IMG/VR virus record: IMGVR_UViG_3300042891_000377
Location: 1 to 64,000 of that record
Origin: a virus
Length of the DNA stretch: 64,000 nucleotides
Reading direction: 5' to 3' (one strand)
The translations under genes were made by a program, and so were the position numbers. Positions 6,241 to 59,371 of the stretch are shown in pieces. A model generated the notes under the pieces. The model was not told the origin of the DNA and made no database searches. It was given only the letters and a program-made list of their open reading frames with translations. Every line of letters starts with the position of its first letter. Within the stretch, counting starts at the first letter, position 1.

Positions 6241-6244
6241 AACT

Positions 6245-7651: not shown

Positions 7652-7652
7652 T

Positions 7653-10318: not shown

Positions 10319-10401
10319 TGTAATAGTATTTAACGTGTGCTATACTATAAGAAATTATTTAATTTCTATTTGCAATAAATACATTAAACTGGAGTAGAAC
10401 T

Positions 10402-41389: not shown

Positions 41390-41396
41390 AGAAATA

Positions 41397-42973: not shown

Positions 42974-43673
42974 ACAACCATTGGTACTAATAGGATCTAG
43001 AGCCTTAATGGATTTTTATACAGACACCTGCGAAGTATTAGGTATCGAACTATTAGGCTTCTTGGATCAATACTATTGGGGCAATACAGAAAGTATTAGT
43101 GGAGTCCCCTGCATTGGTAGTGAATTAGACCTTATCGACAATCCTAAGAAATATGCCGATGCTAAGTTTATGATTGCCAATACCTGGGACGGAAACAGTC
43201 GTTTTGAAAATTTAGAACACGACGGCTATCATTTAAGACAGCAACGTTTAGCATTTGTTAAACAGTTAGACTTACCGTGTTATACTCTAATTGATCCCAG
43301 AGCAATTGTTGCTAAAAATAATCAAATTGGACAAGGCACATACATTGGTCCATTAGCTAATATTAGATCTAGGAACGTTATTGGCGAGCACGTGTTTATA
43401 CACGATAATGCTATCATGGCGCACGATGTACATGTGGGTGAAAATAGTATATTAGGTGTTGCTAGTGTTATTATGGGCGGAGTGCGTGTAGGCGAAAATG
43501 TATACGTGGGTTCAGGTGCATTATTAGTTAACGGAAAAAGTACTAAACAACCATACATTACAGTGGGAAATGACTGTAAGATACACGCTGGTGCATTGGT
43601 GCAAAAAGATATGGAAGCTGGTACAACTGCTACATTTGTAGGCAAGTACCTAAGAAGAACAGACCTAAGTTAA
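42966..43673 (+). CDS. NeuD/PglD-like sugar acetyltransferase
   Basis: Hexapeptide left-handed beta-helix repeats; AHD. Confidence 0.85.
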   Translation: MSKQPLVLIGSRALMDFYTDTCEVLGIELLGFLDQYYWGNTESISGVPCIGSELDLIDNPKKYADAKFMIANTWDGNSRFENLEHDGYHLRQQRLAFVKQLDLPCYTLIDPRAIVAKNNQIGQGTYIGPLANIRSRNVIGEHVFIHDNAIMAHDVHVGENSILGVASVIMGGVRVGENVYVGSGALLVNGKSTKQPYITVGNDCKIHAGALVQKDMEAGTTATFVGKYLRRTDLS

Positions 43674-43682
43674 GGAACGAAA

Positions 43683-44003
43683 ATGGAAATTATATTTGGT
43701 AGAGAAAATGCAGAAAAACTGCGTGAAAAATATACTGTGTTAGATTTAGAAACAGTTGAAAAAGATGGAGTTGAATTAGAAGTATTCTGCTTAATACCAG
43801 CTGATAAAATTAGTCTTGGTGATTTGCCTACACTAGAGCAGTATACTAATCTACATGCGGAATTTCTTGAAGGATATAAGAATAAACACTACGACTACTG
43901 CCGTCAGTGCATCACTTACCTAATGGGTAAGTTTTCCGGTGAAGTTGACACGTTTTATGAAGAAATACTGCGTAGAATCGATGAAATAGACCCTCCAAAG
44001 TAA
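43683..44003 (+). CDS. Small protein resembling the C-terminal segment of the class III cyclase at 57347
   Basis: IIFGRENAEKLREKYTVLDLETV vs LIIGPKTAEYCKDDFPVVWLDNI; H..F...Y...YE.I..RI vs H..Y...Y...YE.M..RM. Confidence 0.6.
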   Translation: MEIIFGRENAEKLREKYTVLDLETVEKDGVELEVFCLIPADKISLGDLPTLEQYTNLHAEFLEGYKNKHYDYCRQCITYLMGKFSGEVDTFYEEILRRIDEIDPPK

Positions 44004-44025
44004 TACTATAAGTTAATTATAATAG

Positions 44026-44055
44026 AGCCCCTGTTAAATAATACTAACGGGGGCT
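44026..44055 (+). promoter_or_regulatory. Late promoter within a hairpin in front of csgF
   Basis: AGCCCCTGTTA-AATAATAC-TAACGGGGGCT; TAAATA at 44035-44040. Confidence 0.65.
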
Positions 44056-44060
44056 TTCTC

Positions 44061-44558
44061 ATGATTAGGACACCTATCTGCAATCTTTTAATGGTCGCCA
44101 TGCTAATTGCCGGCGCCAATATCGTGCAGGCTGGGGAAATGGTCCATACCTTTAACAGTCCGGCATTCCACGGACAAGGATTTGGTATACATGCCCTTAC
44201 AATTAAGCAATTAGAAGATCAAGCCAAAGACAAGCGCGAATCTGCCGCAGAAGCTATACAGGCTAAAGCAGAATCTGCTGCACTTAATACTCCGCAGGCA
44301 CGCTTTATTGCTAATCTGGAATCGAGAATTTATAGTCAGTTGGCTAAACAACTAACTGATAGTATGTTTGGGGAAGGTGCTACTTGTACTACAGCAGGCA
44401 TAGTATGTGGTAATATTCCAAACTTAGGTGGTAACAGTATCCAGTGGAGTCTTGGAGCAGGTAGTGATAATGGTTTGATTATTATCACCATACAAGATTT
44501 AAGTAATGTTGACAATGTAACAACTATGAAAGTACCGGCGGGCTCATTTTATTTTTAA
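44061..44558 (+). CDS. csgF: Curli assembly protein CsgF-like
   Basis: Signal peptide, then GEMVHTFNSPAFHG (CsgF N-terminal F.NP.FGG-like); F..NLESRIYSQL; directly before csgG. Confidence 0.8.
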   Translation: MIRTPICNLLMVAMLIAGANIVQAGEMVHTFNSPAFHGQGFGIHALTIKQLEDQAKDKRESAAEAIQAKAESAALNTPQARFIANLESRIYSQLAKQLTDSMFGEGATCTTAGIVCGNIPNLGGNSIQWSLGAGSDNGLIIITIQDLSNVDNVTTMKVPAGSFYF

Positions 44559-44567
44559 GGATGATAA

Positions 44568-45434
44568 ATGAATAAAACACTTATATCCTTATTAATAGCC
44601 GCGCTGTTAACAGGATGCGCTACAGGTAGTGTTATTAAAGAAAAAATAACAGGTGAGCAATTTGACAAGCCTGAGATAGTACGTGAAACATATTTTACTA
44701 AACCAGAGAATAAGGTATTACCTCCAAGTGGTGGGCCTATTCCTATAGCAGTATATAGTTTTCAGGATAAAACTGGACAGCGTAAGAATATACCTAACGT
44801 GGCTAGTTTTAGTACTGCGGTAACACAGGGTGCAGAAGCATATCTAATTGGTGCTCTACAAGACGTAGGCGACCAACGTTGGTTTACTGTGTTAGAGCGT
44901 GTGGGCTTAGATAACTTGATTAAAGAGCGTCAAATGATTCGTCAAATGCGTGAACAATATCAAGGACGTGACGCTAAGGCATTACCACCAATGATGTTTG
45001 CTGGTGTTATTGTAGAAGGAAGTGTAACAGGTTATGATAGTAATCTGCTTACAGGAGGTAGTGGTATGCGCATACTAGGTATCGGAGCACAAACGCAATA
45101 CCAAAGTGATACAGTTACAATTACTCTAAGAACAGTAAGCGTTAATACAGGTGAAGTATTAACAACTGTAACAGTTACTAAAACAGTGTTAAGCTACATG
45201 GACAAACTTGGTATACTAAAGTTTGTTGAAGAAGGCACAAAAGCCGTTGAAGCTGAAACTGGTATGAGTATCAATGAAAGTGTCAATAAAGCAACTAGCC
45301 TAGCAGTTAAGGCTGCTGTAATTGCTACTATTCGAGAAGGAGTGCGTAAAGGGCACTGGGCATTTAAGGAAGAGCCTAAGCCTGTAGTACAAACAGATGG
45401 TGTAAAATACCCTTTGTTAGAAACAAAAAAATAA
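44568..45434 (+). CDS. csgG: Curli secretion channel lipoprotein CsgG
   Basis: Lipobox LLTGC; AVYSFQDKTGQRK; SFSTAVTQGA; WFTVLERVGLDNLIKERQMIR. Confidence 0.93.
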   Translation: MNKTLISLLIAALLTGCATGSVIKEKITGEQFDKPEIVRETYFTKPENKVLPPSGGPIPIAVYSFQDKTGQRKNIPNVASFSTAVTQGAEAYLIGALQDVGDQRWFTVLERVGLDNLIKERQMIRQMREQYQGRDAKALPPMMFAGVIVEGSVTGYDSNLLTGGSGMRILGIGAQTQYQSDTVTITLRTVSVNTGEVLTTVTVTKTVLSYMDKLGILKFVEEGTKAVEAETGMSINESVNKATSLAVKAAVIATIREGVRKGHWAFKEEPKPVVQTDGVKYPLLETKK

Positions 45435-45467
45435 TAATAGGATTTTAAAAATCCAAGGAGCAACACG

Positions 45468-46253
45468 ATGAAATATAATTTAAAAGCAACGGTAAGTATG
45501 ATGTTTTTAGCATTGTCAACATCGGTAATGGCCGCAGGCCCAACAGGTCCTAACCGTGTTTACATTGAACAATTGGGTAACACCAATAATGTTACAATTG
45601 AACAAGTTGGCGGCACTAACGATGTTGGTGGTACCGCTGGTAGTGTAGCAGTTGACGCAACAGGTCTAAGTACATTAACAGTAACAGCACCTAGTACAAG
45701 TAACTATGCTACAATTAACGGCAGTAATAACGGTGTAACTATAACGCAAACTGGTGACGATAATCAATCACAGTACAACATTAAAGGTGGCAATAACAGC
45801 TTTACAAGTACTCTAACTGGTGATGGTAATCAAAGTAAACTTACTATTGGTAATAGCACCACTAATGGTATGCGTAATACTGTTACTGAAACTGTTACAG
45901 GTAGTACTAATATGTTGATTACTAATATTGTTGGTAGTGACAACGCATTATCAACTACTATCACTGGTAGCAGTAACCAACTGACTACTGATGTAACTAC
46001 TAGTAATGCTGATATTACCAACACTATTAGTGGTAGTAACAATATATTTAATATACAACAACGAGATGCTGCAGGCAGTGCTGGCCATAGTTTAATCACA
46101 TCAACTACAGGTGATTATAACAGTATTACTACACAGCAACAAGGTACAAATGATACTACATTGAATATTAGTACAACTGGTGATCATAACACTATTACTA
46201 TACGTTCAAGTAGCAGTGCTATAGTAAGCCCAGTATCAGCAATAGTGAGATAG
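45468..46253 (+). CDS. Secreted curlin-repeat-like protein
   Basis: Signal peptide; repeated N....IxQxG..N and G..N units; Thr/Ser/Asn/Gly-rich. Confidence 0.75.
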   Translation: MKYNLKATVSMMFLALSTSVMAAGPTGPNRVYIEQLGNTNNVTIEQVGGTNDVGGTAGSVAVDATGLSTLTVTAPSTSNYATINGSNNGVTITQTGDDNQSQYNIKGGNNSFTSTLTGDGNQSKLTIGNSTTNGMRNTVTETVTGSTNMLITNIVGSDNALSTTITGSSNQLTTDVTTSNADITNTISGSNNIFNIQQRDAAGSAGHSLITSTTGDYNSITTQQQGTNDTTLNISTTGDHNTITIRSSSSAIVSPVSAIVR

Positions 46254-46256
46254 TCA

Positions 46257-47348
46257 ATGAAACTATTGCTTGCTTTAGCGTGCTTAGTAGCAACTACTAA
46301 CGCATGGGCAGGCATTGGAACTGTAAGCGATACTAAAGGTACCGCTTGTTCAATAGAGCGTGCTAAACAGACCCTGCCTGGCAACAAAGGTGCGACCATA
46401 GAAAGTATGGATACCTATGTTACAGGCGGCTGTGTTAGCAATATCACATTTAAAGATGACACCAAAGTAAAAATAACAGAAAACAGTCGACTAATGATAG
46501 ACGACTTTGTTTACGATCCTAAAAAATCCGACGCAGGTAAACTAGCTCTTAAAGTAGGTATGGGCACAGTACGTTATGCCTCTGGACAAATTGCTAAAAA
46601 CAATCCACAAAAGGTAGATATTAAAACACCCACAGCTAGTATTGCTGTTCGCGGTACAGACTTTAACATGACTGTAGACGAAGCAGGACAGAGTTTAGTT
46701 ATTCTTGTGCCTAGCTGTAAAGATGGTGAAAAGATTAAAGAATACGAGCTAGAAGAAAACTTATGTAAAGTGGGCAAGATCGAAGTCAGCACACTGGCTG
46801 GTGTAGTTACCTTAGACAAAGCATTTGAAGGTACGTATGTAACCAGTGCTAACATGATGCCTAGTCCTCCAGCTATTATTAACACAATTGAAAGTAAGAT
46901 TGGTAACAGTCTTATTATCACTCGCCCACCCGAAATTGTCAAAGCTAGTAAAGAAGCAGGTAAAAGCAAACGTGATCTAGAACAAGAAGAACTAGAAGCT
47001 ATTCAAGCAAGTCAACTTGCTCAACGTATAGCTAAAGAAGGTGAAGCTAAAGCTGTAGTGTTGCCTTATAGCTTTGACAGTGGTAAATCAGGATGTAATC
47101 CGGCAATCAATGTCTGCGTTAAATGGGAAAATCCGGATGGTGAAAGCATACAGGCCAAAGGTCGAGGTATAGCGTTTCGTCAAAGTGAAGATCACTATGC
47201 AGAAGTTAAAACACAGGGCTACGAAAGTAATACGTCAATTGAAATAATTCACGATGATAATATTGCCTCAGCTACAATTGGTTCGGGCGATCCAGGTGGC
47301 AATGTAGTGCGTATCAAACAGAATTCTGGAGTGTTAAGACGACAATGA
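46257..47348 (+). CDS. Periplasmic FecR-domain protein
   Basis: Signal peptide; F.DDT...ENS.L.ID; TPTASIAVRGTDF. Confidence 0.85.
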   Translation: MKLLLALACLVATTNAWAGIGTVSDTKGTACSIERAKQTLPGNKGATIESMDTYVTGGCVSNITFKDDTKVKITENSRLMIDDFVYDPKKSDAGKLALKVGMGTVRYASGQIAKNNPQKVDIKTPTASIAVRGTDFNMTVDEAGQSLVILVPSCKDGEKIKEYELEENLCKVGKIEVSTLAGVVTLDKAFEGTYVTSANMMPSPPAIINTIESKIGNSLIITRPPEIVKASKEAGKSKRDLEQEELEAIQASQLAQRIAKEGEAKAVVLPYSFDSGKSGCNPAINVCVKWENPDGESIQAKGRGIAFRQSEDHYAEVKTQGYESNTSIEIIHDDNIASATIGSGDPGGNVVRIKQNSGVLRRQ

Positions 47349-48472
47349 AACGGCTCCTTGTAATCTTATTATTAGTTTGCTCCAATACCTGGGCCGCAGG
47401 ACTTGCTGGACTTAATTATCAGAACTATGCCGCAGGTGGTGCTATGCCATCATATACGCAAGATGCTAATGGAAACATCACTAATCGCACACTACTATCA
47501 ACTGGAACTGTGAATACGGTGGGATTAACTACTAGTAGTGGAGCAGGCTTGCCTACTCGCAGTGATGGATTTATAGTTCGTTTCTATGGTTACATCAATA
47601 TAGAAACAGCAGGTACATATTACTTTGGCGGGCAAGCAGACGACGGTATCCGTATTAAGATTAATAACATATCTGTGGTTAATAGTTGGATAGAATCTGG
47701 CGGCGCATTTAGAGAAGGCAGCATTACTTTGTCAGCAGGAGTTGTTCCGGTAGAAGTAATGTATTACGAGAACGGCGGTGGACAAATGGTTAACTTCCAA
47801 TGGTTTATGAACGGCTATTGGCAGATTGTACCTACAGCGTCGATAGCTACAGATACTACCTATTGGGCGCCTGCGGCTCCTGTACTATGTTGCGGCGGCA
47901 GTTCGTCAAGTTTTAATGCTAGTCCATCTAATGTAACAAAAGTACAGTCATACGCCACAAGGAATACCAATGACAGTCAGGTGTACATAGACCAAATTGG
48001 TAATGATAACGAGATCACAGTTAACCAAACAGGTACTAAAAATAACTACACAGAATACAATAGTAGTGGTAGTTTCAATACCGTTAATATCTCACAAACT
48101 GGTAATAGTTCAACAACAGCAAACTACGTAGAACTAAATGTCAACGGTGATAGTAATATAGTAAATCTAACGCAGCAGAGTACAGGTGGTGCCAAGGGTA
48201 TCTACGCTACAGTTAACGATGACAATAATAATGTAACAGTCTTACAGAAAGACGGTGGTAATGCTTACTTAAACTTAAACCTAAGTGGCGGTAATAAAAC
48301 TGTAGACATAACGCAACAAGGCAGTGCTGCACACATGGCTGACATTACTCTAACTGGAGCAGGTGCTAGAAGTTTAAACTTAAATCAGCAAGGTAGCACA
48401 CAACAGTTTTACAGTATTAATAGTAGTTGCGCTAGTGCCTGTCAGGCAATAACAGTAATACAAGGACAATAA
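47345..48472 (+). CDS. Secreted PA14-domain + curlin-repeat protein
   Basis: GYINI..GTY.F...ADDGIRI..YYENGGG (PA14); C-terminal QIGNDN.I.VNQTG..N repeats. Confidence 0.8.
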   Translation: MKRLLVILLLVCSNTWAAGLAGLNYQNYAAGGAMPSYTQDANGNITNRTLLSTGTVNTVGLTTSSGAGLPTRSDGFIVRFYGYINIETAGTYYFGGQADDGIRIKINNISVVNSWIESGGAFREGSITLSAGVVPVEVMYYENGGGQMVNFQWFMNGYWQIVPTASIATDTTYWAPAAPVLCCGGSSSSFNASPSNVTKVQSYATRNTNDSQVYIDQIGNDNEITVNQTGTKNNYTEYNSSGSFNTVNISQTGNSSTTANYVELNVNGDSNIVNLTQQSTGGAKGIYATVNDDNNNVTVLQKDGGNAYLNLNLSGGNKTVDITQQGSAAHMADITLTGAGARSLNLNQQGSTQQFYSINSSCASACQAITVIQGQ

Positions 48473-48547
48473 CAGCAGAATCAGTGCTGTAACGTTATTA
48501 ATAACTGTTGTATTTTTACAACATTGTTATCAAAAAACAACAAAAGG

Positions 48548-48576
48548 TTGACTCTCCATTATAAATACTGTACACT
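48548..48576 (+). promoter_or_regulatory. Overlapping sigma70 and late promoters for the porin
   Basis: TTGACT-N17-TACACT with TATAAATA at 48560-48567. Confidence 0.7.
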
Positions 48577-48623
48577 GATAGTATAACATATTAGTGTTAT
48601 CCAATAAAAGGAGAAGTATCGTA

Positions 48624-49835
48624 ATGAAGAAATTATTATTAGCAACATTATTAGCAAGTATGTATTCAACTGCGAACGCTGGCATTCAAATTCCAGCTGG
48701 TGATTGGACTCTAGACATCGGCGGCGTTGTAAACGCTTACTACACAAACACACGCGGCACAGGTGATGCTGTAGTTGGTGGCGCCGGTGGCCCTAATACC
48801 AATGGTCAACGCAATGAATCAAATATTACAACTGGTCTATTACCAAACGTATTATCAGTTTCTGGTAAATCACGTCAAAATGATTTAGACATTGGTTTCA
48901 CTATTGCAATCAATCCAGGCGCTTCAACAACAGCAGCTGGTGATCAAGGCGCTAACCAAGAAAATCGTCAAGCATTTTTGACTATCGGTGATAAATCATG
49001 GGGTAGTGTAAAACTAGGTAAAGACCTAGGTATTTTCGCTAGTGATGCTATCTTAAACGACATGACATTGTTAGGTGTTGGTTCTGGTGCTGGCGCACTA
49101 GCTGGTAACACAACTACATTGGGTCGTATTGGTACTGGTTATATGTACGCTGACTGGAAATCACAAATTGCTTACACATCACCAAACTTTAATGGATTTC
49201 AATTCACAGCAGGTGTAACACAAGCATGGAATGCTCAAACAGCTGACTTAAATGCAGCAACAGCAGGTGTACAAGCTGCTTCAGCAACTTCAACAGGCCG
49301 TGGTGGTGCACAACCAGCTTTCGAAGGTAAAGTATCTTACTCATTAGCAGGTCCCATTGCTGCTAAAGTTTGGTCAAGTGCCATTACACAAAAAGTTGAA
49401 GGTGTTACTGGTGCCAGTGCCGATGACCGTGCTTATGCTTGGGACGTTGGTACAAACTTAACAGCTGGTCCATACGGTTTAACTGCTTATTACTTTGATG
49501 GTAAAGGTATTGGCCGTACACTTCAATTAGCTGATGGTTTTGATACTACTGGTCGTCGTCGTGATTCAAACGGTGGTTATGTACAAGGTACATACACATT
49601 GCCAACAGCAACTAAACTTGGCGTAAGCTGGGGTCAAAGTAAACTAGATCGTAACAGTGGTGAAACAGCAACCGCATTAGTTTCGAAAAACGAAATGTGG
49701 ACACTTGGTGCTTACCACCCACTTACTAAATCAGTTAACCTAGTAGCTGAATACTCAGACGTTAAGTCAGAAGCACAAAACGGTGCTGAAGGCAAATCAC
49801 GCTCAGTATCGGCAGGTGCTATCTTATTCTTCTAA
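48624..49835 (+). CDS. Gram-negative outer-membrane porin
   Basis: Signal peptide MKKLLLATLL..ANA; amphipathic beta strands; YTSPNFNGF; C-terminal Phe. Confidence 0.9.
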   Translation: MKKLLLATLLASMYSTANAGIQIPAGDWTLDIGGVVNAYYTNTRGTGDAVVGGAGGPNTNGQRNESNITTGLLPNVLSVSGKSRQNDLDIGFTIAINPGASTTAAGDQGANQENRQAFLTIGDKSWGSVKLGKDLGIFASDAILNDMTLLGVGSGAGALAGNTTTLGRIGTGYMYADWKSQIAYTSPNFNGFQFTAGVTQAWNAQTADLNAATAGVQAASATSTGRGGAQPAFEGKVSYSLAGPIAAKVWSSAITQKVEGVTGASADDRAYAWDVGTNLTAGPYGLTAYYFDGKGIGRTLQLADGFDTTGRRRDSNGGYVQGTYTLPTATKLGVSWGQSKLDRNSGETATALVSKNEMWTLGAYHPLTKSVNLVAEYSDVKSEAQNGAEGKSRSVSAGAILFF

Positions 49836-49858
49836 GATTAACTTCTTAGTCTAATAAT

Positions 49859-49888
49859 TAAAAAGCCCACTCCGGTGGGCTTTTTTAC
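49859..49888 (+). terminator. Terminator, also direct repeat 1 flanking xoxF
   Basis: TAAAAAGCCCAC-TCCG-GTGGGCTTTTTTAC. Confidence 0.9.
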
Positions 49889-49913
49889 GGAGATAACATC
49901 ATTTGGTTAAAAA

Positions 49914-50020
49914 TGTAACAAATTGTAAAAATATTGCTTGACAGGTGGCCGGTTATCATATACACTAGTAAACATATAGCAAATCACATTTGTAACAAGA
50001 TGTAACAAACTATATAAATA
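49914..50020 (+). promoter_or_regulatory. xoxF promoter region: sigma70 promoter, TGTAACA direct repeats, late promoter
   Basis: TTGACA(49938)-N17-TACACT; TGTAACA/TGTAAAA at 49914/49924 and TGTAACA at 49991/50001; TATAAATA at 50013. Confidence 0.65.
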
Positions 50021-50117
50021 AAGTTGTTATTAAGGGTCCTTAGTAACATTTTCAAAACTTGTGGTCCGCGGCATACAGCAACCGGCACGTTTTTATTTAA
50101 ACACAAGGGAGATGTAA

Positions 50118-51983
50118 ATGAAGTTAAAATCAATTAAAGTAGCATTAAGTTTAGTTTTAGCATTACCAGCAGTAGCTTTCGCAGCAGCTGACCAAGAAAA
50201 AGCAATGAAAGACGCTAACAACTGGGTTGGCCCACGTGGTCAATACGACAACCAAGGTTACAGTGCATTAGCACAAGTTAACAAAGGTAACGTTAAAGGC
50301 CTTAAAGCTGCTTGGACATTCGCTACCGGTGTAAACCGTGGCCACGAAGGTTCACCAGTAGTTGTTGGTAACATGATGTACGTTCACACAGCGTTCCCAA
50401 ACAACGTTTACGCTCTTGACTTAAACGACAATCAAAAAATCGTTTGGTCTTACTTCCCAAAACAAGATCCATCAGTACAAGCTGTATTGTGCTGCGATAA
50501 CGTTTCACGTGGTCTTGGTTACGGCGACGGTAAAATCTACCTACAACAAAACGATGGTAACTTGGTTGCTTTAGACGCTAAAACTGGTGCTAAAGTATGG
50601 TCAACTTTAATCAACGATCCAAAAGTCGGTGCTACTAACACTAATGCTCCACACGTGATCAAAGATAAAGTACTGACAGGTTGTTCAGGTGCTGAATTTG
50701 GTGTTCGTTGCTTTATCGCAGCTTACAACTTAAAAGACGGTTCATTAGCATGGAAAGCATACTCAACAGGCCCTGATGCTGAAATGTTAATCGGCGAAGG
50801 CTTCAACAAAGATACACCTGAGTACAGCGCACTATCAGTTTACCAAGACGTAAACGGTGGTAACAAATTAGGTGGTTCTTTCAACACTATCCCTAATGAC
50901 AAATTAGTAATTGGTCAAAAAGAGTTAGGCACACGTACATGGTTGAAACCACAAGCAGTTAAAGATGGTTGGCAACATGGTGGTGGCTCTGTATGGGGCT
51001 GGTGGCCGTATGATGCTCGTACAAACTTGGTTTACTACGGAACAGGTAACCCATCAGTTTGGAACCCAGATGTACGTCCAGGCGACAACAAATGGTCTAT
51101 GACTGTTTTCGCTCGTGACTTAGACACTGGCGTTGCAAAATGGGGTATGCAAATGACTCCACACGATGAGTGGGATTACGATGGTATTAACGAAGTAATC
51201 TTGTTCGACAAAGGTGGTAAAACATACGCATGGCACCATGACCGTAACGGTTTTGCTTACACTTGGAATGCTGGTAACGGTAAATTAGTTGCTGCAGAAA
51301 AAGTACACCCATTCGTTAACTGGGCAACTGGTGTTGATTTGAAAACAGGCGTGCCTAACAAATTGGCTACTGCTTCAACTCACCAAGATTACAATGCAAA
51401 AGGCGTTTGTCCAGCTGCTTTGGGTACTAAAGACCAACAACCAGCTGCGTACTCACCAAAAACTGGTTTAATTTACACTCCATTGAACCACGTATGTATG
51501 ACATACGAGCCAGTTGAGTCTAAATACGTTGCAGGTCAACCATGGGTTGGTGCTACATTGACCATGTTCCCAGGTCCAGACGGTGTAATGGGTGGTTTCG
51601 GTGCTTACGATCCAATGACAAACAAAAAAGTTTGGTACAACAAAGAGAAATTCTCTGCTTGGGGTGGTGCTTTAACAACTGCTTCAAACTTAGTATTCTT
51701 CGGTACTTTAGATCGTTGGTTTAAAGCTGTAGATGCATCATCAGGTAAAGAACTATGGAAATTCCAAGTTGGTTCTGGCGTGATTGGTAATGCATTCACA
51801 TACGGTCACAAAGGTAAACAACACGTTGGCGTGCTATCAGGTATCGGTGGCTGGGCTGGTGTGGCGATGAACCTTGGTATGACTAACCCAACAGACGCTT
51901 TAGGTGCTGCTGGTGGTTATGCTGAATTAACAAAATACAACGCGGCTCCTGGCGGCGGTGCATTAACAGTATTCAGTCTTTAA
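50118..51983 (+). CDS. xoxF: Lanthanide-dependent PQQ methanol dehydrogenase XoxF (probably XoxF4-type)
   Basis: Signal peptide; GHEG; vicinal CC disulfide (LCCDNV); GAEFGVR; TGNP; HDEWDYDG with the extra Ln-ligating Asp; W-motif beta-propeller. Confidence 0.96.
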   Translation: MKLKSIKVALSLVLALPAVAFAAADQEKAMKDANNWVGPRGQYDNQGYSALAQVNKGNVKGLKAAWTFATGVNRGHEGSPVVVGNMMYVHTAFPNNVYALDLNDNQKIVWSYFPKQDPSVQAVLCCDNVSRGLGYGDGKIYLQQNDGNLVALDAKTGAKVWSTLINDPKVGATNTNAPHVIKDKVLTGCSGAEFGVRCFIAAYNLKDGSLAWKAYSTGPDAEMLIGEGFNKDTPEYSALSVYQDVNGGNKLGGSFNTIPNDKLVIGQKELGTRTWLKPQAVKDGWQHGGGSVWGWWPYDARTNLVYYGTGNPSVWNPDVRPGDNKWSMTVFARDLDTGVAKWGMQMTPHDEWDYDGINEVILFDKGGKTYAWHHDRNGFAYTWNAGNGKLVAAEKVHPFVNWATGVDLKTGVPNKLATASTHQDYNAKGVCPAALGTKDQQPAAYSPKTGLIYTPLNHVCMTYEPVESKYVAGQPWVGATLTMFPGPDGVMGGFGAYDPMTNKKVWYNKEKFSAWGGALTTASNLVFFGTLDRWFKAVDASSGKELWKFQVGSGVIGNAFTYGHKGKQHVGVLSGIGGWAGVAMNLGMTNPTDALGAAGGYAELTKYNAAPGGGALTVFSL

Positions 51984-51996
51984 TCTGTAGTTAACC

Positions 51997-52026
51997 TAAA
52001 AAGCCCACTTCGGTGGGCTTTTTTAC
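51997..52026 (+). terminator. Terminator, also direct repeat 2 flanking xoxF
   Basis: TAAAAAGCCCAC-TTCG-GTGGGCTTTTTTAC (29/30 identical to 49859-49888). Confidence 0.9.
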
Positions 52027-52045
52027 CTCTGCAATAAATACTTTT

Positions 52046-52144
52046 ATGTATACTTGGCGCGAAACGTTTATCTTTATTGAAATCATTCTATTCTTCACAC
52101 TCGTGTTTTCTATCCCCTACATAGAACAACTAATCCAACCGTAA
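52046..52144 (+). CDS. Putative 32-aa membrane peptide (not in ORF track)
   Basis: TAAATA-N5-ATG; MYTWRETFIFIEIILFFTLVFSIPYIEQLIQP. Confidence 0.4.
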   Translation: MYTWRETFIFIEIILFFTLVFSIPYIEQLIQP

Positions 52145-52180
52145 CAAAAATTTAATCTGTTTGTAACACTACTGTAATCT
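52139..52180 (+). promoter_or_regulatory. Tandem Pho-box-like array
   Basis: GTAACA/TTAATC/GTAACA/GTAATC at 52141, 52152, 52163, 52174 (11-bp period), upstream of the phosphate operon. Confidence 0.65.
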
Positions 52181-52200
52181 TTGTGTGTTTAAATATACAT

Positions 52201-52950
52201 ATGACCACAAGATATAAGACCATTTGTATATCCGACTTTCACCTTGGCACTAAAGATGCTAAGGCTGATCTATTAAACAATTTCCTTAAAAATCACACCT
52301 GCGAAAATTTATTTTTAGTTGGTGATATTATTGACGGTTGGAAGATACAGCAGAACAAGTGGAAGTGGCATCAAAGCCATACTAATGTTATTCGTCGTAT
52401 ATTAGGTTATAGCAAGCGAGGTTGTAATGTAACCTATGTAACTGGCAATCATGACGAGTTTCTTCGCCCGTTGGTAAGTCATGGATTCAATCTCGGCAAT
52501 ATTCGTATGGTAAATCAAGCAGAATATCGCAGTATAGATGGCGAGTTGTTTCTAATTACCCACGGCGACTTATTTGACGGTATTACTAGATTAGCACCGT
52601 GGTTAGGATTTTTAGGTGATAAAGCATATGATGTAGCTTTATGGTTTAATAACTATTTTAACTTTGCTCGTAGAAAATTAGGATTTGGTTATTGGAGTTT
52701 AAGCAAGTTTTTAAAAGCTCGCGTTAAGAAAGCAATGGGTTTTGTATTTAAGTTTGAACTTAACATGTTACAGTATGCTCAAAAACAAGGGTATGATGGT
52801 GTTATCTGCGGACATATACACACACCCGAAATTAAACACATCAACGGCATGATTTATATGAACGACGGTGATTGGGTTGAAAGTTGTAGTGCCCTAGTAG
52901 AAGATTATGAAGGACGCTGGGATATTATATATTGGAATGAAATTAAATAG
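52201..52950 (+). CDS. Calcineurin-like metallophosphoesterase (LpxH/YbbF-like)
   Basis: SDFHLG, GDIID, GNHD, HGD, GHIH, NDGDW. Confidence 0.9.
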   Translation: MTTRYKTICISDFHLGTKDAKADLLNNFLKNHTCENLFLVGDIIDGWKIQQNKWKWHQSHTNVIRRILGYSKRGCNVTYVTGNHDEFLRPLVSHGFNLGNIRMVNQAEYRSIDGELFLITHGDLFDGITRLAPWLGFLGDKAYDVALWFNNYFNFARRKLGFGYWSLSKFLKARVKKAMGFVFKFELNMLQYAQKQGYDGVICGHIHTPEIKHINGMIYMNDGDWVESCSALVEDYEGRWDIIYWNEIK

Positions 52951-52962
52951 GAGAGAATGTAA

Positions 52963-53964
52963 ATGACGATTCAACAGATTAAAACGATAATGTATTATGT
53001 AGTAATAGCATTTGCTGTATCAATGGCTGGATTAAAACAAGTTCAGGCAGCAGACAAAATGGTCAAAATAGACGGCAGTTCGACAGTCTATCCAATATCA
53101 GAAGCAGTAGCAGAAGAATTTCAAAAGAAAACAGGGGTTAAGGTAACAGTAGGTGAAAGTGGTACAGGTGGCGGCTTTAAAAAGTTCTGTCGCAGTGAAA
53201 CTGACATCAGCGATGCTAGTCGTCCTATTTCACAAAAAGAGATGGATGCTTGTAAAGAAGCAGGTGTACAGTACATCGAATTGCCCGTTGCCTACGATGC
53301 TCTAACTGTAGTAGTAAACAGCAAAAATGGCTGGGTTAAATCATTTACAGTTGAAGAATTGAAAAAAATATGGGCACCGGGTAGTTCAGTTAAAAACTGG
53401 AATCAAGTAAATCCAGCTTATCCAAATCAACCACTACAATTATTTGGCCCAGGTACAGCAAGTGGTACATTTGACTACTTCACCGAAGCTATCAATGGTA
53501 AGGCAAAATCCAGTCGCAGCGACTACACACCAAGTGAAGATGACAATGTTCTAGTAACTGGTGTAGCAGGTAATTCGGGGGCACTAGCTTACTTTGGTTA
53601 TGCTTATTACGAAGAAAACAAAGATAAATTACGTGCCATTCCTATCATTGCTAAGGGCTCAACAACGCCAGTATTACCAAGTCCAGAAGCAGTTATGAAT
53701 GGTACCTATCAACCATTAAGCCGCCCACTGTTTATCTATGTAAATGCAACAGCGGCTGCGTTTAGACCAGAAGTAAAAGCATTTGTAAATTTCTATTTAG
53801 AAAATGCACCTAAGTTAGTAAAAGAAGTAAAGTATGTTCCATTACCAGCAGACGACTATGCGGCAGTAACAGAGCATTTCAAAGCACTAAAACCAGGTAC
53901 AGGGTTTAACGGTACTCCAGAAGTAGGCATTAAAATTAAAGACTTAATTAAACGAATCAAATAA
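52963..53964 (+). CDS. pstS: Phosphate-binding protein PstS
   Basis: [37 protein letters not shown]. Confidence 0.93.
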
Positions 53965-53973
53965 GGAAACATT

Positions 53974-55383
53974 ATGACATTAAAAAATATTATCACAGGT
54001 TTATTCATAGCATCAGCATTAATTGCTACACCAGTATATGCAGACAGCACTAACGACATCGTGAATGCGTTGGTGATGAAAGGCGTGTTAACCGAAGAAG
54101 AAGGTGCCTTAATTAACAAAGGTCGTACTGGAGAAACAAGCGCAGTTAAAAAAGAAAAAGATACCACTGTACATGCGGCTAGCAAAATGAATATACGTGG
54201 CTACTTACAGATACGAAATACTACTATGCTCAGTGGTGACGAAGGAGTTAACCTTTGGTCAGATCGATCTGTAGGTGACAAAAATTCACTCGCTGACCAA
54301 GACAAAAACTTCCTAATTCGTCGTGCTCGTATTATTATATCAGGTTCGGCAGGTGATCGTTTAGATTACTATATTCAACCCGACTTTGCTAGTACAGCAG
54401 GTACCACAGGTAACGTTGCGCAACTACGTGATGCTTATGGTGACGTGAATCTAACCAAAGATAAAGTGCACCGTGTGCGTGTGGGTCAAAGTAAAGTACC
54501 ATATGGATTTGAAAACTTACAATCTTCACAAAATCGTTTAGCACTTGATCGTGCCGACGCATTTAACAGCGCAGTACGTGATGAGCGTGATTTAGGTGCG
54601 TTCTACTACTACACACCAGATAATGTACAAAAGTTGTTTAAAGAAATACAAGACAGTGGTTTAAAACATTCAGGTAACTACGGTATGTTTGGCGTTGGTA
54701 TATATAACGGCCAGGGTGCTAACCAACAAGATCGTAACGATAATTATCATACAGTAGCACGTTTTACTTACCCTTGGAAAACAGAAAGCGGACAAATATA
54801 CGAAGCTGGTATACAAGGTTATACAGGCAAGTATGTAAGAACAGGCAGTGCGTATAGAAGAAACATGGGCAACAACGTTTACGCAACTAAAACACCGACA
54901 TTAGAACCGGGCAACACAACTGGATTTAAAGACGAACGTATGGGTGTAAGTTTTATGATGTACCCACAACCGTTTGGTATACAAGGTGAGTGGAACTGGG
55001 GTAAAACTCCTGGCTTAGATACTGCTGCTAGTACTGATGGTATTATCAAAGAAACTAACTTGAACGGTGGTTACATTCAAACTATGTATAAAATTGATAA
55101 CTTTAAAGTATTAGATACCAATGGTACACTAATTCCATTTGTTAGATGGCAATACTTTGATGGTGCGTCAAAAGCAGAAACTAACTCACCAATGAACAAG
55201 GTTAACGATTGGGAGATGGGTGCTGAATGGCAAATCGCGCCAGAGGTTGAACTTGTGGCTTACTATCATATGATGAATCGTAGCAACCTAGTAACAGGAG
55301 CATCGGCTACTACACTAGTAAAGCAGGACTATGCTAACTTTAAAGCAGATGCCCTGCGTGTTCAACTACAGTATAACTTTTAG
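53974..55383 (+). CDS. Phosphate-selective porin (OprO/OprP family)
   Basis: F.IRRAR, LRDAY, GQ.KVPYG.E..QSS, RDLG; C-terminal Phe; follows pstS. Confidence 0.85.
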   Translation: MTLKNIITGLFIASALIATPVYADSTNDIVNALVMKGVLTEEEGALINKGRTGETSAVKKEKDTTVHAASKMNIRGYLQIRNTTMLSGDEGVNLWSDRSVGDKNSLADQDKNFLIRRARIIISGSAGDRLDYYIQPDFASTAGTTGNVAQLRDAYGDVNLTKDKVHRVRVGQSKVPYGFENLQSSQNRLALDRADAFNSAVRDERDLGAFYYYTPDNVQKLFKEIQDSGLKHSGNYGMFGVGIYNGQGANQQDRNDNYHTVARFTYPWKTESGQIYEAGIQGYTGKYVRTGSAYRRNMGNNVYATKTPTLEPGNTTGFKDERMGVSFMMYPQPFGIQGEWNWGKTPGLDTAASTDGIIKETNLNGGYIQTMYKIDNFKVLDTNGTLIPFVRWQYFDGASKAETNSPMNKVNDWEMGAEWQIAPEVELVAYYHMMNRSNLVTGASATTLVKQDYANFKADALRVQLQYNF

Positions 55384-55391
55384 GAAACATT

Positions 55392-55481
55392 ATGTTTGAA
55401 CTTTTTATAGATGCTGTAAAAGATATTAGCGGTATATTGGCGATAATGGCGGCTATTGGTATATGGTCATTTTTACTATAG
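55392..55481 (+). CDS. Putative 29-aa membrane peptide (not in ORF track)
   Basis: AGGA SD; MFELFIDAVKDISGILAIMAAIGIWSFLL. Confidence 0.4.
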   Translation: MFELFIDAVKDISGILAIMAAIGIWSFLL

Positions 55482-55614
55482 ATTGCAAGAAAATTACTGG
55501 TCTTTAATGATTTTACGTATGTTATTTAGGTCAAAACGGTGTTACTATATGTATAAGTACTAGTAACAACAAAACATGTTGTGGTACTTTTAATAATTTA
55601 CTAGGAGAAATACT

Positions 55615-55686
55615 ATGTGGACTAAACCAGCAGCCACTGAAATGCGTTTCGGTTTTGAAGTAACTCTTTACGTAATGAACCGTTAA
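55615..55686 (+). CDS. pqqA: PQQ precursor peptide PqqA, 23 aa (not in ORF track)
   Basis: MWTKPAATEMRFGFEVTLYVMNR with ExxxY; AGGAG SD; TATAAGTA at 55552; own terminator. Confidence 0.96.
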   Translation: MWTKPAATEMRFGFEVTLYVMNR

Positions 55687-55707
55687 TTTTAAGGTCCATA
55701 ACGTAAA

Positions 55708-55731
55708 CAAAGCCTCTTAGGAGGCTTTTTT
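55708..55731. terminator. Terminator shared by pqqA and the HNH gene
   Basis: AAAGCCTC-TTAG-GAGGCTTTTT. Confidence 0.85.
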
Positions 55732-56181
55732 ATTGGCCCGTGTTTCTGCCAAGGATGCTCTAATTTTTGCTCGTGTTTCTTCACTAACGACATGCCCTTT
55801 ACGACTTGCGGCCCAATTAGCCATATGTTCTTCAGACTTCTTTTTGCCCTTCATTGCTTCAGAACGTTTTTTATTGGCTTCTTCTAACTTACCACTTGCT
55901 CGTTGTCTTTCTGTTCTAAGTTTACAACTTTCTCTGAGTTTTGCTTTAGATTCCTCAGACATGGGTTTCTTGCTGCCTTTACTCCTTGCCATAAACATTG
56001 CCTCATCTTGTCCCATTTGCCCAGACAATGCTTGCCAAGCACAATAGTCTTGCCAATTGCCGTGTTGTTCGTACAGCAAGCGATGCGCTTCTGCGTGAGC
56101 TTCTACGGTAAGTTCTATTAGGTTACTAGGATCGTCGGTGCCGCCTAGGTATTGAGGTAAGATGTGATGTATATGTTTCAT
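55717..56181 (-). mobile_element. Free-standing HNH homing endonuclease with NUMOD3-like repeats
   Basis: HHILP..GG.D..SNL..L...H...H; SEESKAKL and SEETRAKI repeats. Confidence 0.85.
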
Positions 56182-56335
56182 ACAGTTATTTATTATTGTT
56201 ACTTCATAACCTATAAACAAAACTTATTGCGACCATTTAAAAATACAATTAAAAAAACCTATTAATCAGGCTTTTTTTATTAAAAATTTTAATATATAAT
56301 ATATGTACATTAACAATTTAATCAAGGGGAAGTAA

Positions 56336-56902
56336 ATGAGTTTAATCGGAAAACAAGTAGAAGCATTTAAAGCACAAGCATACCGTCAAGGTCAGTTTGT
56401 AGAAGTATCAGAGCAAGATTTAAAAGGTCGTTGGAGTATAGTATTCTTTTACCCAGCAGACTTTACATTCGTCTGCCCAACAGAATTAGCAGACTTACAA
56501 GACGTATACGCTAGTGACTTTAAAGCAATGGGGGTAGAAGTATACAGCGTAAGCACAGACACACACTTTGTACACAAAGCATGGGCAGATGCTACAGACA
56601 CAATCCGTAACATCACCTACACAATGATTGGCGATGCTAACCATCAGTTAGCTCGACAATTTGGTGTGCTAATTGAAAGCGAAGGACTAGCTGATCGCGG
56701 TACGTTTGTTATTGATCCAGATGGTGTTGTACAGATCATTGAGATCAATCCAGGGGGTGTTGGCCGTGACGCAAAAGAACTATTGCGTAAAGTTAAAGCG
56801 GCAAAATACACTAGAGAGCATCCGGGTGAAGTATGCCCGGCTAAATGGCAAGAAGGAAGTGCTACCTTAGCACCAAGTTTGGATTTAGTAGGTAAACTAT
56901 AA
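56336..56902 (+). CDS. ahpC: Alkyl hydroperoxide reductase C (2-Cys peroxiredoxin)
   Basis: [13 protein letters not shown]; GEVCPAKW; [10 protein letters not shown]. Confidence 0.96.
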
Positions 56903-56906
56903 AAAC

Positions 56907-56932
56907 AAAAAGCCCCAATTAAGGGGCTTTTT
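56907..56932. terminator. Bidirectional terminator
   Basis: AAAAAGCCCC-AATTAA-GGGGCTTTTT between convergent genes. Confidence 0.9.
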
Positions 56933-56934
56933 TA

Positions 56935-57231
56935 TCACTGAGTTAACACCCATTTAACTAGCGTTTTAATATCCTCGTCTTTGATCTGTGGACTCATTGG
57001 CGGCATTGGGATAGGACCCCATACTCCACTACCACCTGCTTTAACCTTTGCTACTAGTTTAGCCTCTACATCTTGACCTTTGTATTTCTTAGCAACGTCT
57101 TTATACGCTGGACCTAAGATCTTATGATCAACTGCGTGACAAGCTAAACACCCACTTTTCTGTGCCAATGCTTGGTTAGCATTTGCTGTGATGCAACTAC
57201 CTAATAATAATACTGCTAAAATAGTTTTCAT
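56935..57231 (-). CDS. Periplasmic class I cytochrome c (c551/c552, c8 family)
   Basis: Signal peptide; CLACH; GPAYKDVA; GSGVWGPIPMPP (Met ligand). Confidence 0.93.
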   Translation of the reverse strand: MKTILAVLLLGSCITANANQALAQKSGCLACHAVDHKILGPAYKDVAKKYKGQDVEAKLVAKVKAGGSGVWGPIPMPPMSPQIKDEDIKTLVKWVLTQ

Positions 57232-57346
57232 TTTAGACCTTTCATAAAAGTTAACTTACAATGTATTTAACGCCGATAAACTATATCTATTTATTTTTGG
57301 TAGAATTTTGATTGACGAAAATTCCAAAAGAGTAAATAATAGTACT

Positions 57347-59371
57347 ATGATGAAAAATAAACTTAAAAAACTCCTAGTCAGTCCGTGGACTGCGTTAATT
57401 ACATTAGCTGTTATTGTAGTAGTAATCCTACAAGGACCTACATTCGTAGAGTCGGTTAGACTTAGATACTTTGACACACTGATTAGTGGCAAGGCTCCTA
57501 CAGAAAATAATATCTATACTGTAAACATAGATGAAGCAACATTAGACAAGTATGGGCAATGGCCATTTAAGCGTGACAAGTACGCAGACCTAATTGATGA
57601 CCTGTACAAACATGGCGCTGGCCTAGTTGTTTGGACTGTTATGATGCCAGAAGCAGACCGTCAAGGTGGCGATGCGGCCTTGGCATTAGAGTTAGAGGAC
57701 CATCCAGTTATCCTTACTAACATGCCCAGTGAAAAGTCTAAGAACATCCCACGTAAACCAGGCAGTGCTGTTATTGGTGACGAGTACAGCGACACAATTA
57801 TCACCTATCCGGGTATCATTGCTAACATTCCAGAACTAGAACGTAATGCCGCTGGTGTTGGTATTGCTAACACATTCCCAGAGGTAGATGGTGTTAATCG
57901 TCGACTACCATTGTTCGTTGGTTATGACAATAACGTATATCCAAGTATTCCGTTAGAAGTATTACGTGTTATATCGCAAGACTCAACATTCCAAGTTAAA
58001 CTAAATGAATTTGGTGTTGAGAAAATGCGCATACCAAGTTTCCGTCCTATCAGCACAGATAGCTTAGGTCGTATCTGGGTAGACTGGAGTCAAAAGTCAA
58101 CACAGGTATCAGCAGTCAACTTGCCTACAGACTTTGGTGGTGCTGTGGTTATTGTAGGCCTAAGTGCCGCAGGTTTAGCTAACCCAGTGCCAACTAGTAT
58201 CGGTAGCGTATGGCCACAAGATATGCAGGCCGCTGTTATTGGTACGTTAGCTAACAACGTAAACATTGAACGTCCATTCTGGGCAGACAATGCTGAACTG
58301 TTGGCTCTTATTGTTATCTCACTTATTATTTTAATCTTGAGCCGTTGGGTATATGTTGGCCTAGGAGTTGGCGTTGTATTGCTTGCGGCAATTACACCTG
58401 CAACAATGTATGCGTTTGCGCACTATAACTTCTTGTTTGATGCCATTGTGCCCACAGCAGGCGGTGTACTGGTTATGCTACACGCTTATGGTGTTAAGTT
58501 TATTAGCGAGTTCTTACAGAAACAACAGATCAAGAAACAATTTGGTAGCTACGTTAACCCTACTATTGTTGAACGCTTACAAAAGAATCCAGAGCTGATT
58601 AAACTAGGCGGCGAACGTAAAGAACTTTCAATTGTTATGACTGACCTACGTGGCTTCACAACACTTGGCGAATCGTTTGGTGATGATGTAGAAGGACTTA
58701 CACAGATCATGAATGACTACATGACAGCATTGAGTATTCCTGTGCTAAAGAATGATGGTACTTTAATTAAGTTTATCGGTGATGCTAGTTTACACGTACA
58801 CGGTGCTCCGTTGGATGATGCTAATCACGCTAAGACTGCGGTGCGTACTGCACTCGAAATGATCAAAGCCATTGAAGACTTTAACGTAGAACTTGTTGCT
58901 AGTGGCCGGCCACCGGTTGGTATGGGTGCTGGTGTTAACACAGGTGAAACCTTAATTGGTAACATTGGTGCTAAGAGCAAGTTTGGTTATGACGTTCTAG
59001 GTGACAGTGTAAGTACTGCGGCACGTTTAGAAGGACAAACTAAGTCATATGGTGTGTTACTAATCATCGGTCCTAAGACTGCTGAATACTGTAAAGATGA
59101 CTTCCCTGTAGTATGGTTAGACAACATTGCCGTTAAAGGTAAAACTATTGGCTTAGATATCTACACAGTTGGTCGTACTAATCTTTATATGCACGAGGAG
59201 TATCGTAAAGAATATACTCGTGGTAATTGGGGCAAGGCTATTGTATGGGCTAAAAAATTAGTCAACAACGATGATGTTGATATTAAACATTACTATGAAC
59301 TAATGATTGAACGTATGGAACAGGGTGTTCCTGCAAACTGGGATGGCACTTATCACGCCACTTCAAAATAA
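57347..59371 (+). CDS. CHASE2-domain class III adenylate/guanylate cyclase
   Basis: IDEATL..GQWPF.R and DGVNRR (CHASE2); 3 TM helices; TDLRGFT, KFIGDA, GD.V..AARLE. Confidence 0.93.
   Translation: MMKNKLKKLLVSPWTALITLAVIVVVILQGPTFVESVRLRYFDTLISGKAPTENNIYTVNIDEATLDKYGQWPFKRDKYADLIDDLYKHGAGLVVWTVMMPEADRQGGDAALALELEDHPVILTNMPSEKSKNIPRKPGSAVIGDEYSDTIITYPGIIANIPELERNAAGVGIANTFPEVDGVNRRLPLFVGYDNNVYPSIPLEVLRVISQDSTFQVKLNEFGVEKMRIPSFRPISTDSLGRIWVDWSQKSTQVSAVNLPTDFGGAVVIVGLSAAGLANPVPTSIGSVWPQDMQAAVIGTLANNVNIERPFWADNAELLALIVISLIILILSRWVYVGLGVGVVLLAAITPATMYAFAHYNFLFDAIVPTAGGVLVMLHAYGVKFISEFLQKQQIKKQFGSYVNPTIVERLQKNPELIKLGGERKELSIVMTDLRGFTTLGESFGDDVEGLTQIMNDYMTALSIPVLKNDGTLIKFIGDASLHVHGAPLDDANHAKTAVRTALEMIKAIEDFNVELVASGRPPVGMGAGVNTGETLIGNIGAKSKFGYDVLGDSVSTAARLEGQTKSYGVLLIIGPKTAEYCKDDFPVVWLDNIAVKGKTIGLDIYTVGRTNLYMHEEYRKEYTRGNWGKAIVWAKKLVNNDDVDIKHYYELMIERMEQGVPANWDGTYHATSK

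Follow-up and report, generated by a model that had tools for sequence, protein, structure and literature searches.

A split curli-type cassette with a FecR-fold protein and a CHASE2 adenylate cyclase in a T4-like jumbo phage

The IMG/VR virus record IMGVR_UViG_3300042891_000377 is 104 kb long, and its first 64 kb (64,000 nucleotides, referred to here as the window) contain genes for a curli-type (type VIII) secretion apparatus, two curlin-repeat proteins and a FecR-fold protein, followed downstream by a gene encoding a CHASE2 adenylate cyclase. Three anchored searches agree on the linkage of these two halves, which indicates that they very probably form one conserved module and that the gap separating them in the window is a hot spot for insertions. 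The viral curli module was published previously, and the block adds to it a new member that is split and comes from a jumbo phage. New here are the identification of the CHASE2 domain, a paralogue of the cyclase C terminus (orf106), the hot spot and its PlcP-type cargo, a complete operon in Henriciella, domain shuffling in the cyclase, and a missing nucleotide receptor.

The first six genes of the cassette form a run on the plus strand (43683-48472) with intergenic gaps of 3 to 57 nt and a single 4-nt overlap. Every gene named in a preliminary description of the window, which had been made from the letters alone, was found in its stated place, and all of them are on the plus strand. The genes of the cassette are as follows.

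43683-44003, plus strand: orf106, a small cytoplasmic protein and stand-alone paralogue of the cyclase C-terminal module (last cyclase-domain strands and a three-helix tail).
44061-44558, plus strand: CsgF-like secreted assembly factor (Pfam CsgF, E = 6.7e-10) with a signal peptide, 9 nt upstream of csgG.
44568-45434, plus strand: CsgG outer-membrane lipoprotein pore of type VIII secretion (Pfam CsgG, E = 3.9e-50) with the lipobox LLTGC.
45468-46253, plus strand: curlin-repeat protein (CsgA/B-like fibre subunit) with a signal peptide and four G-x-x-N-x-h-x-h-x-Q repeats (h, hydrophobic).
46257-47348, plus strand: soluble, exported FecR-fold protein (Pfam FecR, E = 8.1e-11) with a signal peptide.
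47345-48472, plus strand: second fibre subunit, with a PA14 (lectin-like) domain (Pfam PA14, E = 3e-10) and curlin repeats (Curlin_rpt, E = 5.6e-5).
57308-59371, plus strand: inner-membrane CHASE2 class III (adenylate-type) cyclase with a conserved C-terminal tail (Pfam CHASE2, E = 6.1e-37; Guanylate_cyc, E = 9.3e-18).

The PA14-curlin protein exceeds the Curlin_rpt cut-off of 20.7 bits (23.4 bits) and has a weak match to the NCBIfam CsgA family. The other curlin-repeat protein falls under this cut-off (16.3 bits); its homology to the repeats of the PA14-curlin protein is shown by hhalign (probability of 99.1%). The gene fecR starts 3 nt past the first curlin gene and overlaps the PA14-curlin gene by 4 nt. 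Signal peptides were predicted on CsgF, both curlin-repeat proteins and the FecR protein, and CsgG has its lipobox. The cyclase open reading frame (ORF) has 687 codons, the true start being probably the ATG at position 57347, where its homologues begin, and its CHASE2 match covers positions 4 to 256 of the 257 in the Pfam profile. Hydropathy predicts one transmembrane helix, a periplasmic CHASE2 domain of about 290 residues, a further transmembrane bundle and a cytoplasmic cyclase domain, an architecture that matches the CHASE2 receptor adenylate cyclases of the CyaD1 type. Thus, the outer-membrane pore, surface repeat proteins, periplasmic FecR protein and inner-membrane CHASE2 cyclase listed in the preliminary description are all present according to profile matches and topology. 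No match to CsgE (PF10627) was found in the 104-kb record, which is a fragment, while the Escherichia coli control was matched. In the promoter scan, sites were no more numerous than in shuffled sequence, with no enrichment of the T4 late-promoter motif, and the terminator scan found few more.

The conservation of the cassette was analysed with the cyclase and CsgG as anchors and in loci with no partner in the flank. Viral contigs contained 395 relatives of the cyclase and at least 590 of CsgG, and FecR protein clusters in metagenomes numbered at least 7,952. Around the cyclase, diverged relatives (37 to 66% identity) have csgF, csgG, curlin, fecR and sometimes a second curlin gene directly upstream. 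The fecR stop and the cyclase start overlap by 4 bp in loci L090-92 and L095 and are separated by gaps of 0 to 151 bp in L066 and L069-71. Around CsgG, fecR was present in every locus with about 1.5 kb of downstream sequence, and both fecR and the cyclase gene were present in 40 of the 42 loci with a downstream flank of at least 9 kb. FecR and the cyclase occur together in 105 viral loci with a median interval of about 2 kb, and a second curlin gene lies between them in 75 of these. Where a partner was missing from the flank, sufficiently long records place it 13 to 17 kb away on the same strand, with the csg/fecR block upstream of the cyclase, and never elsewhere; the other contigs concerned are truncated. 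More than 100 diverged viral loci repeat this gene order, which indicates that the arrangement is far from chance. Contiguity in relatives lacking the island, which the preliminary description had predicted, was borne out, since the cassette is contiguous in the cultured Methylophilales phage Melnitz (gp99-104) and Pelagibacter phage HTVC008M as well as close-set in the 105 loci. Independent occurrence of the cyclase and the csg/fecR genes, which would have spoken against the linkage, was not encountered in the anchored searches.

The preliminary description had regarded the system as undescribed; in fact, the cassette with FecR and adenylate cyclase has already been published for SAR11 and OM43 phages. 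A 'curli operon' was reported in pelagimyophages, with 'sibling capture' as a proposed function (Zaragoza-Solas et al. 2020, PMC7029224), and the full set with FecR and cyclase, both called putative regulators, was found in podo- and myo-pelagiphages, where the cassette is globally distributed and expressed in ocean metatranscriptomes (Wittmers et al. 2022, PMC9599517). Neither of these papers nor that of Buchholz et al. 2022 (PMC9004378) names CHASE2 or proposes a relay from FecR to CHASE2, and a literature search found no paper linking CHASE2 to a phage cyclase or placing the cassette in jumbo phages. In GenBank, the genes of Melnitz and HTVC008M are labelled as CsgF, CsgG, curlin repeat protein, FecR domain protein and adenylate/guanylate cyclase. 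The window shares with these two phages the order csgF, csgG, curlin, fecR, curlin, cyclase and the absence of CsgE, and its cyclase is 41% identical to that of Melnitz and 37% to that of HTVC008M (47 to 48% for CsgG). Unlike the published viral cassettes, that of the window belongs to a jumbo T4-like lineage, is split by an 8.8-kb island and is preceded by orf106. Compared with the curli genes of E. coli (csgBAC-csgDEFG), the phage cassette has the CsgG pore, CsgF and curlin-repeat subunits in common, but adds PA14 on one subunit and has the FecR protein and cyclase in the operon, with no CsgE found.

The virion proteins of the record are closest to those of T4-like cyanophages and pelagimyophages. 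Complete or near-complete relatives with the cassette have genomes of 329, 343 and 328 kb, which indicates that the phage is a jumbo T4-like phage. CheckV estimated the record to be 19% complete, which would imply a genome of about 540 kb, in comparison with the 329 to 343 kb of the closest complete cassette relatives. The record also encodes ribonucleotide reductase, DnaK, GroEL, DNA ligase, tryptophan halogenase and several radical SAM enzymes. A megablast search of the region against isolated phages gave no match.

The cyclase-fragment gene noted earlier at the start of the block is real, orf106 being a true paralogue of the cyclase C terminus. An hhalign comparison aligned the orf106 family to the C-terminal ~110 residues of the cyclases (probability of 99.1%, E = 5.5e-19), and both have a common H...Y...W...YY...R...WDG motif. 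The AlphaFold2 (AF2) model of orf106 has a predicted local distance difference test (pLDDT) score of 88, and neither a significant fold relative in the PDB nor a Pfam family match was found for it. In the jumbo-phage relatives, orf106 is conserved upstream of csgF, and the order exoribonuclease-orf106-csgF recurs in L028, L042, L047, L062, L082-L086 and L089. It was not found near the cassettes of Melnitz or HTVC008M; therefore, the small gene before csgF to which a 'histidine kinase' label was given in the literature may be a different gene. When this label was applied to 14 orf106 members, no histidine kinase family match was obtained at E values up to 1, and it was rejected for them. Upstream of the cassette in the window, positions 40856-43673 encode an Rv2179c-like 3'-5' exoribonuclease, two fatty-acid desaturases and a hexapeptide-repeat transferase.

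A stretch of 8,835 nt with seven genes separates the PA14-curlin gene from the cyclase gene, which confirms the earlier observation that the cyclase is set apart by a metabolic island only. The island and the gene downstream of the cyclase are listed below, with assignments based on Pfam/NCBIfam.

48594-56902: the island as a whole, cargo at the hot spot of the cassette between the second curlin gene and the cyclase.
48594-49835: Porin_4 protein.
50118-51983: pyrroloquinoline quinone (PQQ) methanol/ethanol-family dehydrogenase (TIGR03075, 613 bits, above the cut-off) with a signal peptide, adjoining the porin.
52183-52950: PlcP/LpxH-like metallophosphoesterase.
52963-53964: PstS.
53974-55383: phosphate porin O/P.
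55717-56220, minus strand: HNH/NUMOD3 homing-type endonuclease, on the opposite strand within the island.
56336-56902: peroxiredoxin.
60110-60895, plus strand: exported S11 D-Ala-D-Ala carboxypeptidase (Pfam Peptidase_S11, E = 9.3e-42) with a signal peptide.

The island consists of phosphorus-stress and methanol-oxidation cargo plus a homing-type HNH endonuclease and is outside the signalling module. It is restricted to the close relatives L002, L005, L083 and L084. In jumbo relatives, the island is larger (13 to 17 kb) with the gene order unchanged, and in other lineages the same site contains a GT4 glycosyltransferase, a RimK-type ATP-grasp enzyme or a non-specific endonuclease. A metallophosphoesterase gene is present in 22 of the 105 FecR-cyclase intervals, and in 18 of the 19 GT4-bearing loci it lies on the same strand just upstream of the glycosyltransferase gene. 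Such a PlcP-Agt arrangement serves phosphorus-sparing lipid remodelling. The best family matches of the metallophosphoesterase were LpxH and YfcE, both under the cut-off, with no match to CpdA and no solved structural relative. This LpxH-like character, the PlcP-Agt pairing and the neighbouring PstS and phosphate porin genes led to its rejection as a cyclic AMP (cAMP) phosphodiesterase of the cassette, a role considered because the Campylobacterota cluster described below includes such an enzyme. The phosphorus-stress pair of metallophosphoesterase and GT4 genes was observed in relatives L007, L022, L026, L029, L045-L053, L203 and L235. The methanol dehydrogenase hints at a methylotroph host. 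Strong terminator-like hairpins (55709-55728 and 56907-56932) adjoin the HNH gene, related HNH genes occur at other positions in L004, L005, L006, L009 and L026, and the endonuclease may contribute to the mobility of the island. The carboxypeptidase gene is commonly found downstream of the cyclase at 46 to 93% identity (L002-L020, L023, L030, L034, L035, L042, L043 and L047), and its product is possibly a cell wall-remodelling accessory and not a core part of the cassette.

The FecR protein contains a signal peptide, a FecR core (residues ~20 to 225), a charged helical linker and a variable, beta-rich C-terminal domain. The core has pLDDT scores of about 85 to 92 in the AF2 model, and its top Foldseek matches are the periplasmic domains of PupR/FecR-type anti-sigma proteins (4m0n and 6ovk_R; probability 1.0, E = 2e-4). 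In FecR/PupR regulators, this periplasmic fold grips the periplasmic domain of an outer-membrane protein. The phage cassette and the FecA-FecR-FecI and PupB-PupR systems therefore have the same fold and an analogous logic, from the outer membrane through a periplasmic FecR domain to the inner membrane. However, only a cleavable signal peptide precedes the core of the phage protein, in which neither a transmembrane helix nor an anti-sigma domain was found, and no credible Sigma70_r2 match that would indicate an extracytoplasmic function (ECF) sigma factor was obtained in the 104-kb record. The phage system also differs in lacking a TonB-dependent transducer with a signalling domain, and its proposed inner-membrane partner is a separate CHASE2 cyclase. 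The C-terminal domain, which ends in GGN-x-I-x-I-x-Q, was considered as a curlin repeat and rejected (hhalign probability of only 8%).

The statement in the preliminary description that FecR genes often neighbour CHASE2 cyclases in bacteria is documented by three published cases. A LysM-FecR protein occurs with a CHASE2 histidine kinase ('BiofilmReg') in Burkholderia and Pseudomonas (PMC5192318). The Campylobacterota have a gene cluster for a CHASE2 cyclase, a phosphodiesterase, a TPR protein and a FecR-domain protein, for which a single pathway was proposed (PMC9239204). In Sinorhizobium meliloti, which has the FecR-domain protein SMc02177, the CHASE2 cyclase CyaD1 is constitutive without CHASE2 (PMC5498481). 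FecR-like genes were also seen here beside alphaproteobacterial CHASE2 cyclases in the bacterial loci L127, L147 and L150. As in the phage, the bacterial pairs place an exported FecR protein beside an inner-membrane CHASE2 sensor, and two of the three have a class III adenylate cyclase as the output domain. In contrast to the phage cassette, the bacterial clusters are without CsgG, CsgF and curlin genes and occur in cells with CRP-type receptors. Compared with the Campylobacterota cluster, the phage cassette has no phosphodiesterase, its only phosphoesterase being the LpxH/PlcP-like cargo, and searches of the genes in the cassette and the interval gave no TPR family match.

A complete csgF-csgG-curlin-fecR-CHASE2 cyclase operon was found in a Henriciella metagenome-assembled genome (MAG; L108, positions 6020-12043), with a curlin protein of 504 amino acids. 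The 396-kb contig has a uniform G+C content of about 52%, with TonB-dependent receptor and metabolic genes on both sides of the operon, which is an ordinary chromosomal context. A second Henriciella MAG (L109) also carries the operon. The operon is sporadic, with no close homologue of the Henriciella FecR protein in 300 other genomes of its order. In the tree, Henriciella grouped on long branches with L095, a deep viral contig, at a position intermediate between the phage clade and the alphaproteobacterial one. In view of this chromosomal operon, the published claim that bacterial type VIII secretion operons contain neither FecR nor the cyclase (PMC9599517) needs qualification. Ten other cassette contigs (L101-L107, L110, L113 and L115) are filed in MAGs of Verrucomicrobiota, Bacteroidota, Planctomycetota, Legionellales and Paracoccaceae. 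Their cyclases nest inside the phage clade, which indicates that they are most likely wrongly binned phage contigs.

A trans-envelope relay from the curli apparatus through FecR to the cyclase had been suggested in the preliminary description. In the form preferred here, the phage would install the CsgG/CsgF pore in the host outer membrane during infection, and the pore would export the two curlin-repeat subunits, one with a PA14 lectin-like head, to form surface fibres. The soluble periplasmic FecR-fold protein would be the bridging part, binding both the periplasmic CHASE2 domain and either the CsgG/CsgF apparatus or curlin subunits in transit. Synthesis of cAMP in the cytoplasm could then be set by how secretion is proceeding or by what the fibres bind, and orf106, also cytoplasmic, may modulate the cyclase or share its partner. 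The PupR/FecR signalling fold, the bacterial FecR-CHASE2 pairs and a weak co-variation of FecR with only the CHASE2 part of the cyclase make the relay plausible. The conservation of one module and the bacterial pairs uphold part of the earlier proposal. Coupling of the secretion apparatus to the CHASE2 cyclase by FecR is given a probability slightly short of even, and any specific downstream effect of it is much less likely. A complex prediction with FecR residues 19-363 and CHASE2 residues 42-329, using custom alignments, scored 0.02 against a mark of 0.32, a value that counts neither way on binding.

Several observations weigh against the coupling, the first of which come from the evolution of the cassette proteins. 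Pairwise divergences were compared across 88 loci and assessed with the Mantel test. The divergence of the FecR core follows that of CsgF (r = 0.58) and CsgG (r = 0.46) much better than that of CHASE2 (r = 0.22, p = 0.004), and its correlations with the transmembrane region (r = 0.06, not significant) and the catalytic domain (r = 0.09) of the cyclase are lower still. CsgF also co-varies with CHASE2 (r = 0.23, p = 0.001), unlike CsgG (r = 0.04, not significant). The FecR-CHASE2 co-variation has the direction expected if the periplasmic parts co-adapt, but it is weak, and mirror-tree signals are confounded by shared ancestry and linkage. Within the cyclase, the divergences of the sensor and catalytic halves are unrelated (r = 0.01), and the catalytic signatures D-K-D-D-S-R and D-K-D-T-N-R are spread across CHASE2 types, which indicates recombination between the cyclase domains. 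The cassettes are mosaic. In addition, a cyclase may be missing from podophage cassettes, which nonetheless retain FecR (Wittmers et al. 2022, PMC9599517); this, together with the closer tracking of CsgF and CsgG, suggests that FecR may work mainly for secretion. The FecR-domain protein SMc02177 of S. meliloti is dispensable for signal perception by CHASE2 cyclases (PMC5498481).

These data would also fit two functions lying side by side, in which FecR is a secretion accessory (e.g., a stand-in for CsgE, which was not found in the record), the fibres serve aggregation, 'sibling capture' or superinfection exclusion, and the cyclase senses the envelope on its own, shares only location and timing with the other genes and receives no fibre signal. 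The tolerance of the FecR-cyclase interval for 8 to 17 kb of unrelated cargo and the independent shuffling of the CHASE2 and catalytic halves agree with such an arrangement. However, it does not account for the 4-bp overlap of fecR and cyclase genes in several lineages, the bacterial FecR-CHASE2 pairs with no csg genes nearby, the presence of the cyclase in nearly all well-flanked CsgG loci, or the restriction of clear co-variation with FecR and CsgF to the periplasmic part of the cyclase. This alternative is considered doubtful, with an appreciable probability.

The output of the cyclase likewise weighs against the FecR-cyclase relay. No cNMP_binding or GAF domain was found in six phage records, namely, the record of the window, three complete or near-complete jumbo relatives, Melnitz and HTVC008M. 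Among 61 SAR11-type genomes, each at least 85% complete and from the family holding a Candidatus Pelagibacter MAG, two have a cNMP-binding domain and two have a class III cyclase. These results indicate that the cyclase product has no known reader, at least in SAR11 phages, and that cAMP is unlikely to reprogramme host transcription through CRP in these phages. The reprogramming of host transcription that the preliminary description had suggested is thereby weakened.

The lack of a reader also bears on a published group of proposals, in which the cassette exists for its CsgG/CsgF pore. As a gated channel, the pore would time lysis (Buchholz et al. 2022, PMC9004378) or admit larger nutrients (Zaragoza-Solas et al. 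2020, PMC7029224), and FecR and the cyclase would do no more than control its expression or opening (Wittmers et al. 2022, PMC9599517). No CsgE gate was found, and the exported carboxypeptidase that often follows the cyclase suggests cell wall remodelling around the apparatus, both of which are consistent with a channel. However, a pore alone would leave unexplained the two curlin-repeat subunits, which are well conserved and one of which has a PA14 head, and control of cassette transcription by cAMP needs a receptor, which was found neither in the phages nor in most SAR11-type hosts. Furthermore, no clumping or lysis phenotype has been tied to the genes (PMC9004378). Taken together, a cassette centred on the pore is improbable.

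The catalytic domain of the window cyclase has the signature D446, K488, D492, D562, S569 and R573, in which five of the six canonical catalytic residues are kept and the transition-state Asn is replaced by Ser. The same replacement occurs in 44 of 69 viral homologues, and 24 of the 69 have the fully canonical D-K-D-T-N-R set. Cyclase activity in the clade of the window may thus be low or altered, which is a further point against the relay. A weak or altered enzyme might not signal through cAMP at all and might instead make another nucleotide, drain ATP or make a nucleotide that interferes with nucleotide-based host defence, with CHASE2 and FecR as a trigger that responds to envelope damage. 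The absence of a canonical receptor from the phages and most SAR11-type hosts and the scarcity of cyclases in the SAR11-type genomes would fit this possibility. However, across the viral cyclases there is no variation in the two metal-binding Asp residues, in the Lys and Asp that specify adenine or in the Arg, an adenylate cyclase pattern under purifying selection, and the second large group of cyclases keeps the canonical residues. Such a non-cAMP role is considered very improbable.

Alternatively, the cyclase may belong to a second-messenger circuit private to the phage, in which the status of fibres or secretion acts through FecR on the CHASE2 cyclase and the resulting nucleotide is read by an unrecognised phage receptor. 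Candidates are orf106 in the jumbo phages or another protein whose fold is not recognised. Such a circuit is unlikely on the present evidence. If it exists, it would operate in hosts such as SAR11, which have neither cyclases nor CRP-type receptors of their own, and could let the phage detect cell contact, glycans or superinfection and change its programme accordingly.

For the window itself, the result is mostly a clarification, in that the block is known and intact and is merely interrupted by phosphorus-stress and methanol-oxidation cargo. The CHASE2 sensor, a FecR protein tied to both halves, the complete bacterial operon and the absence of a canonical cAMP reader from the phage and SAR11-type hosts sharpen the model into a testable one, for which the cultured systems Melnitz/OM43 and HTVC008M/SAR11 are available. 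Among the accessory modules of T4-like phages from marine and fresh waters, the cassette is one of the most widespread.

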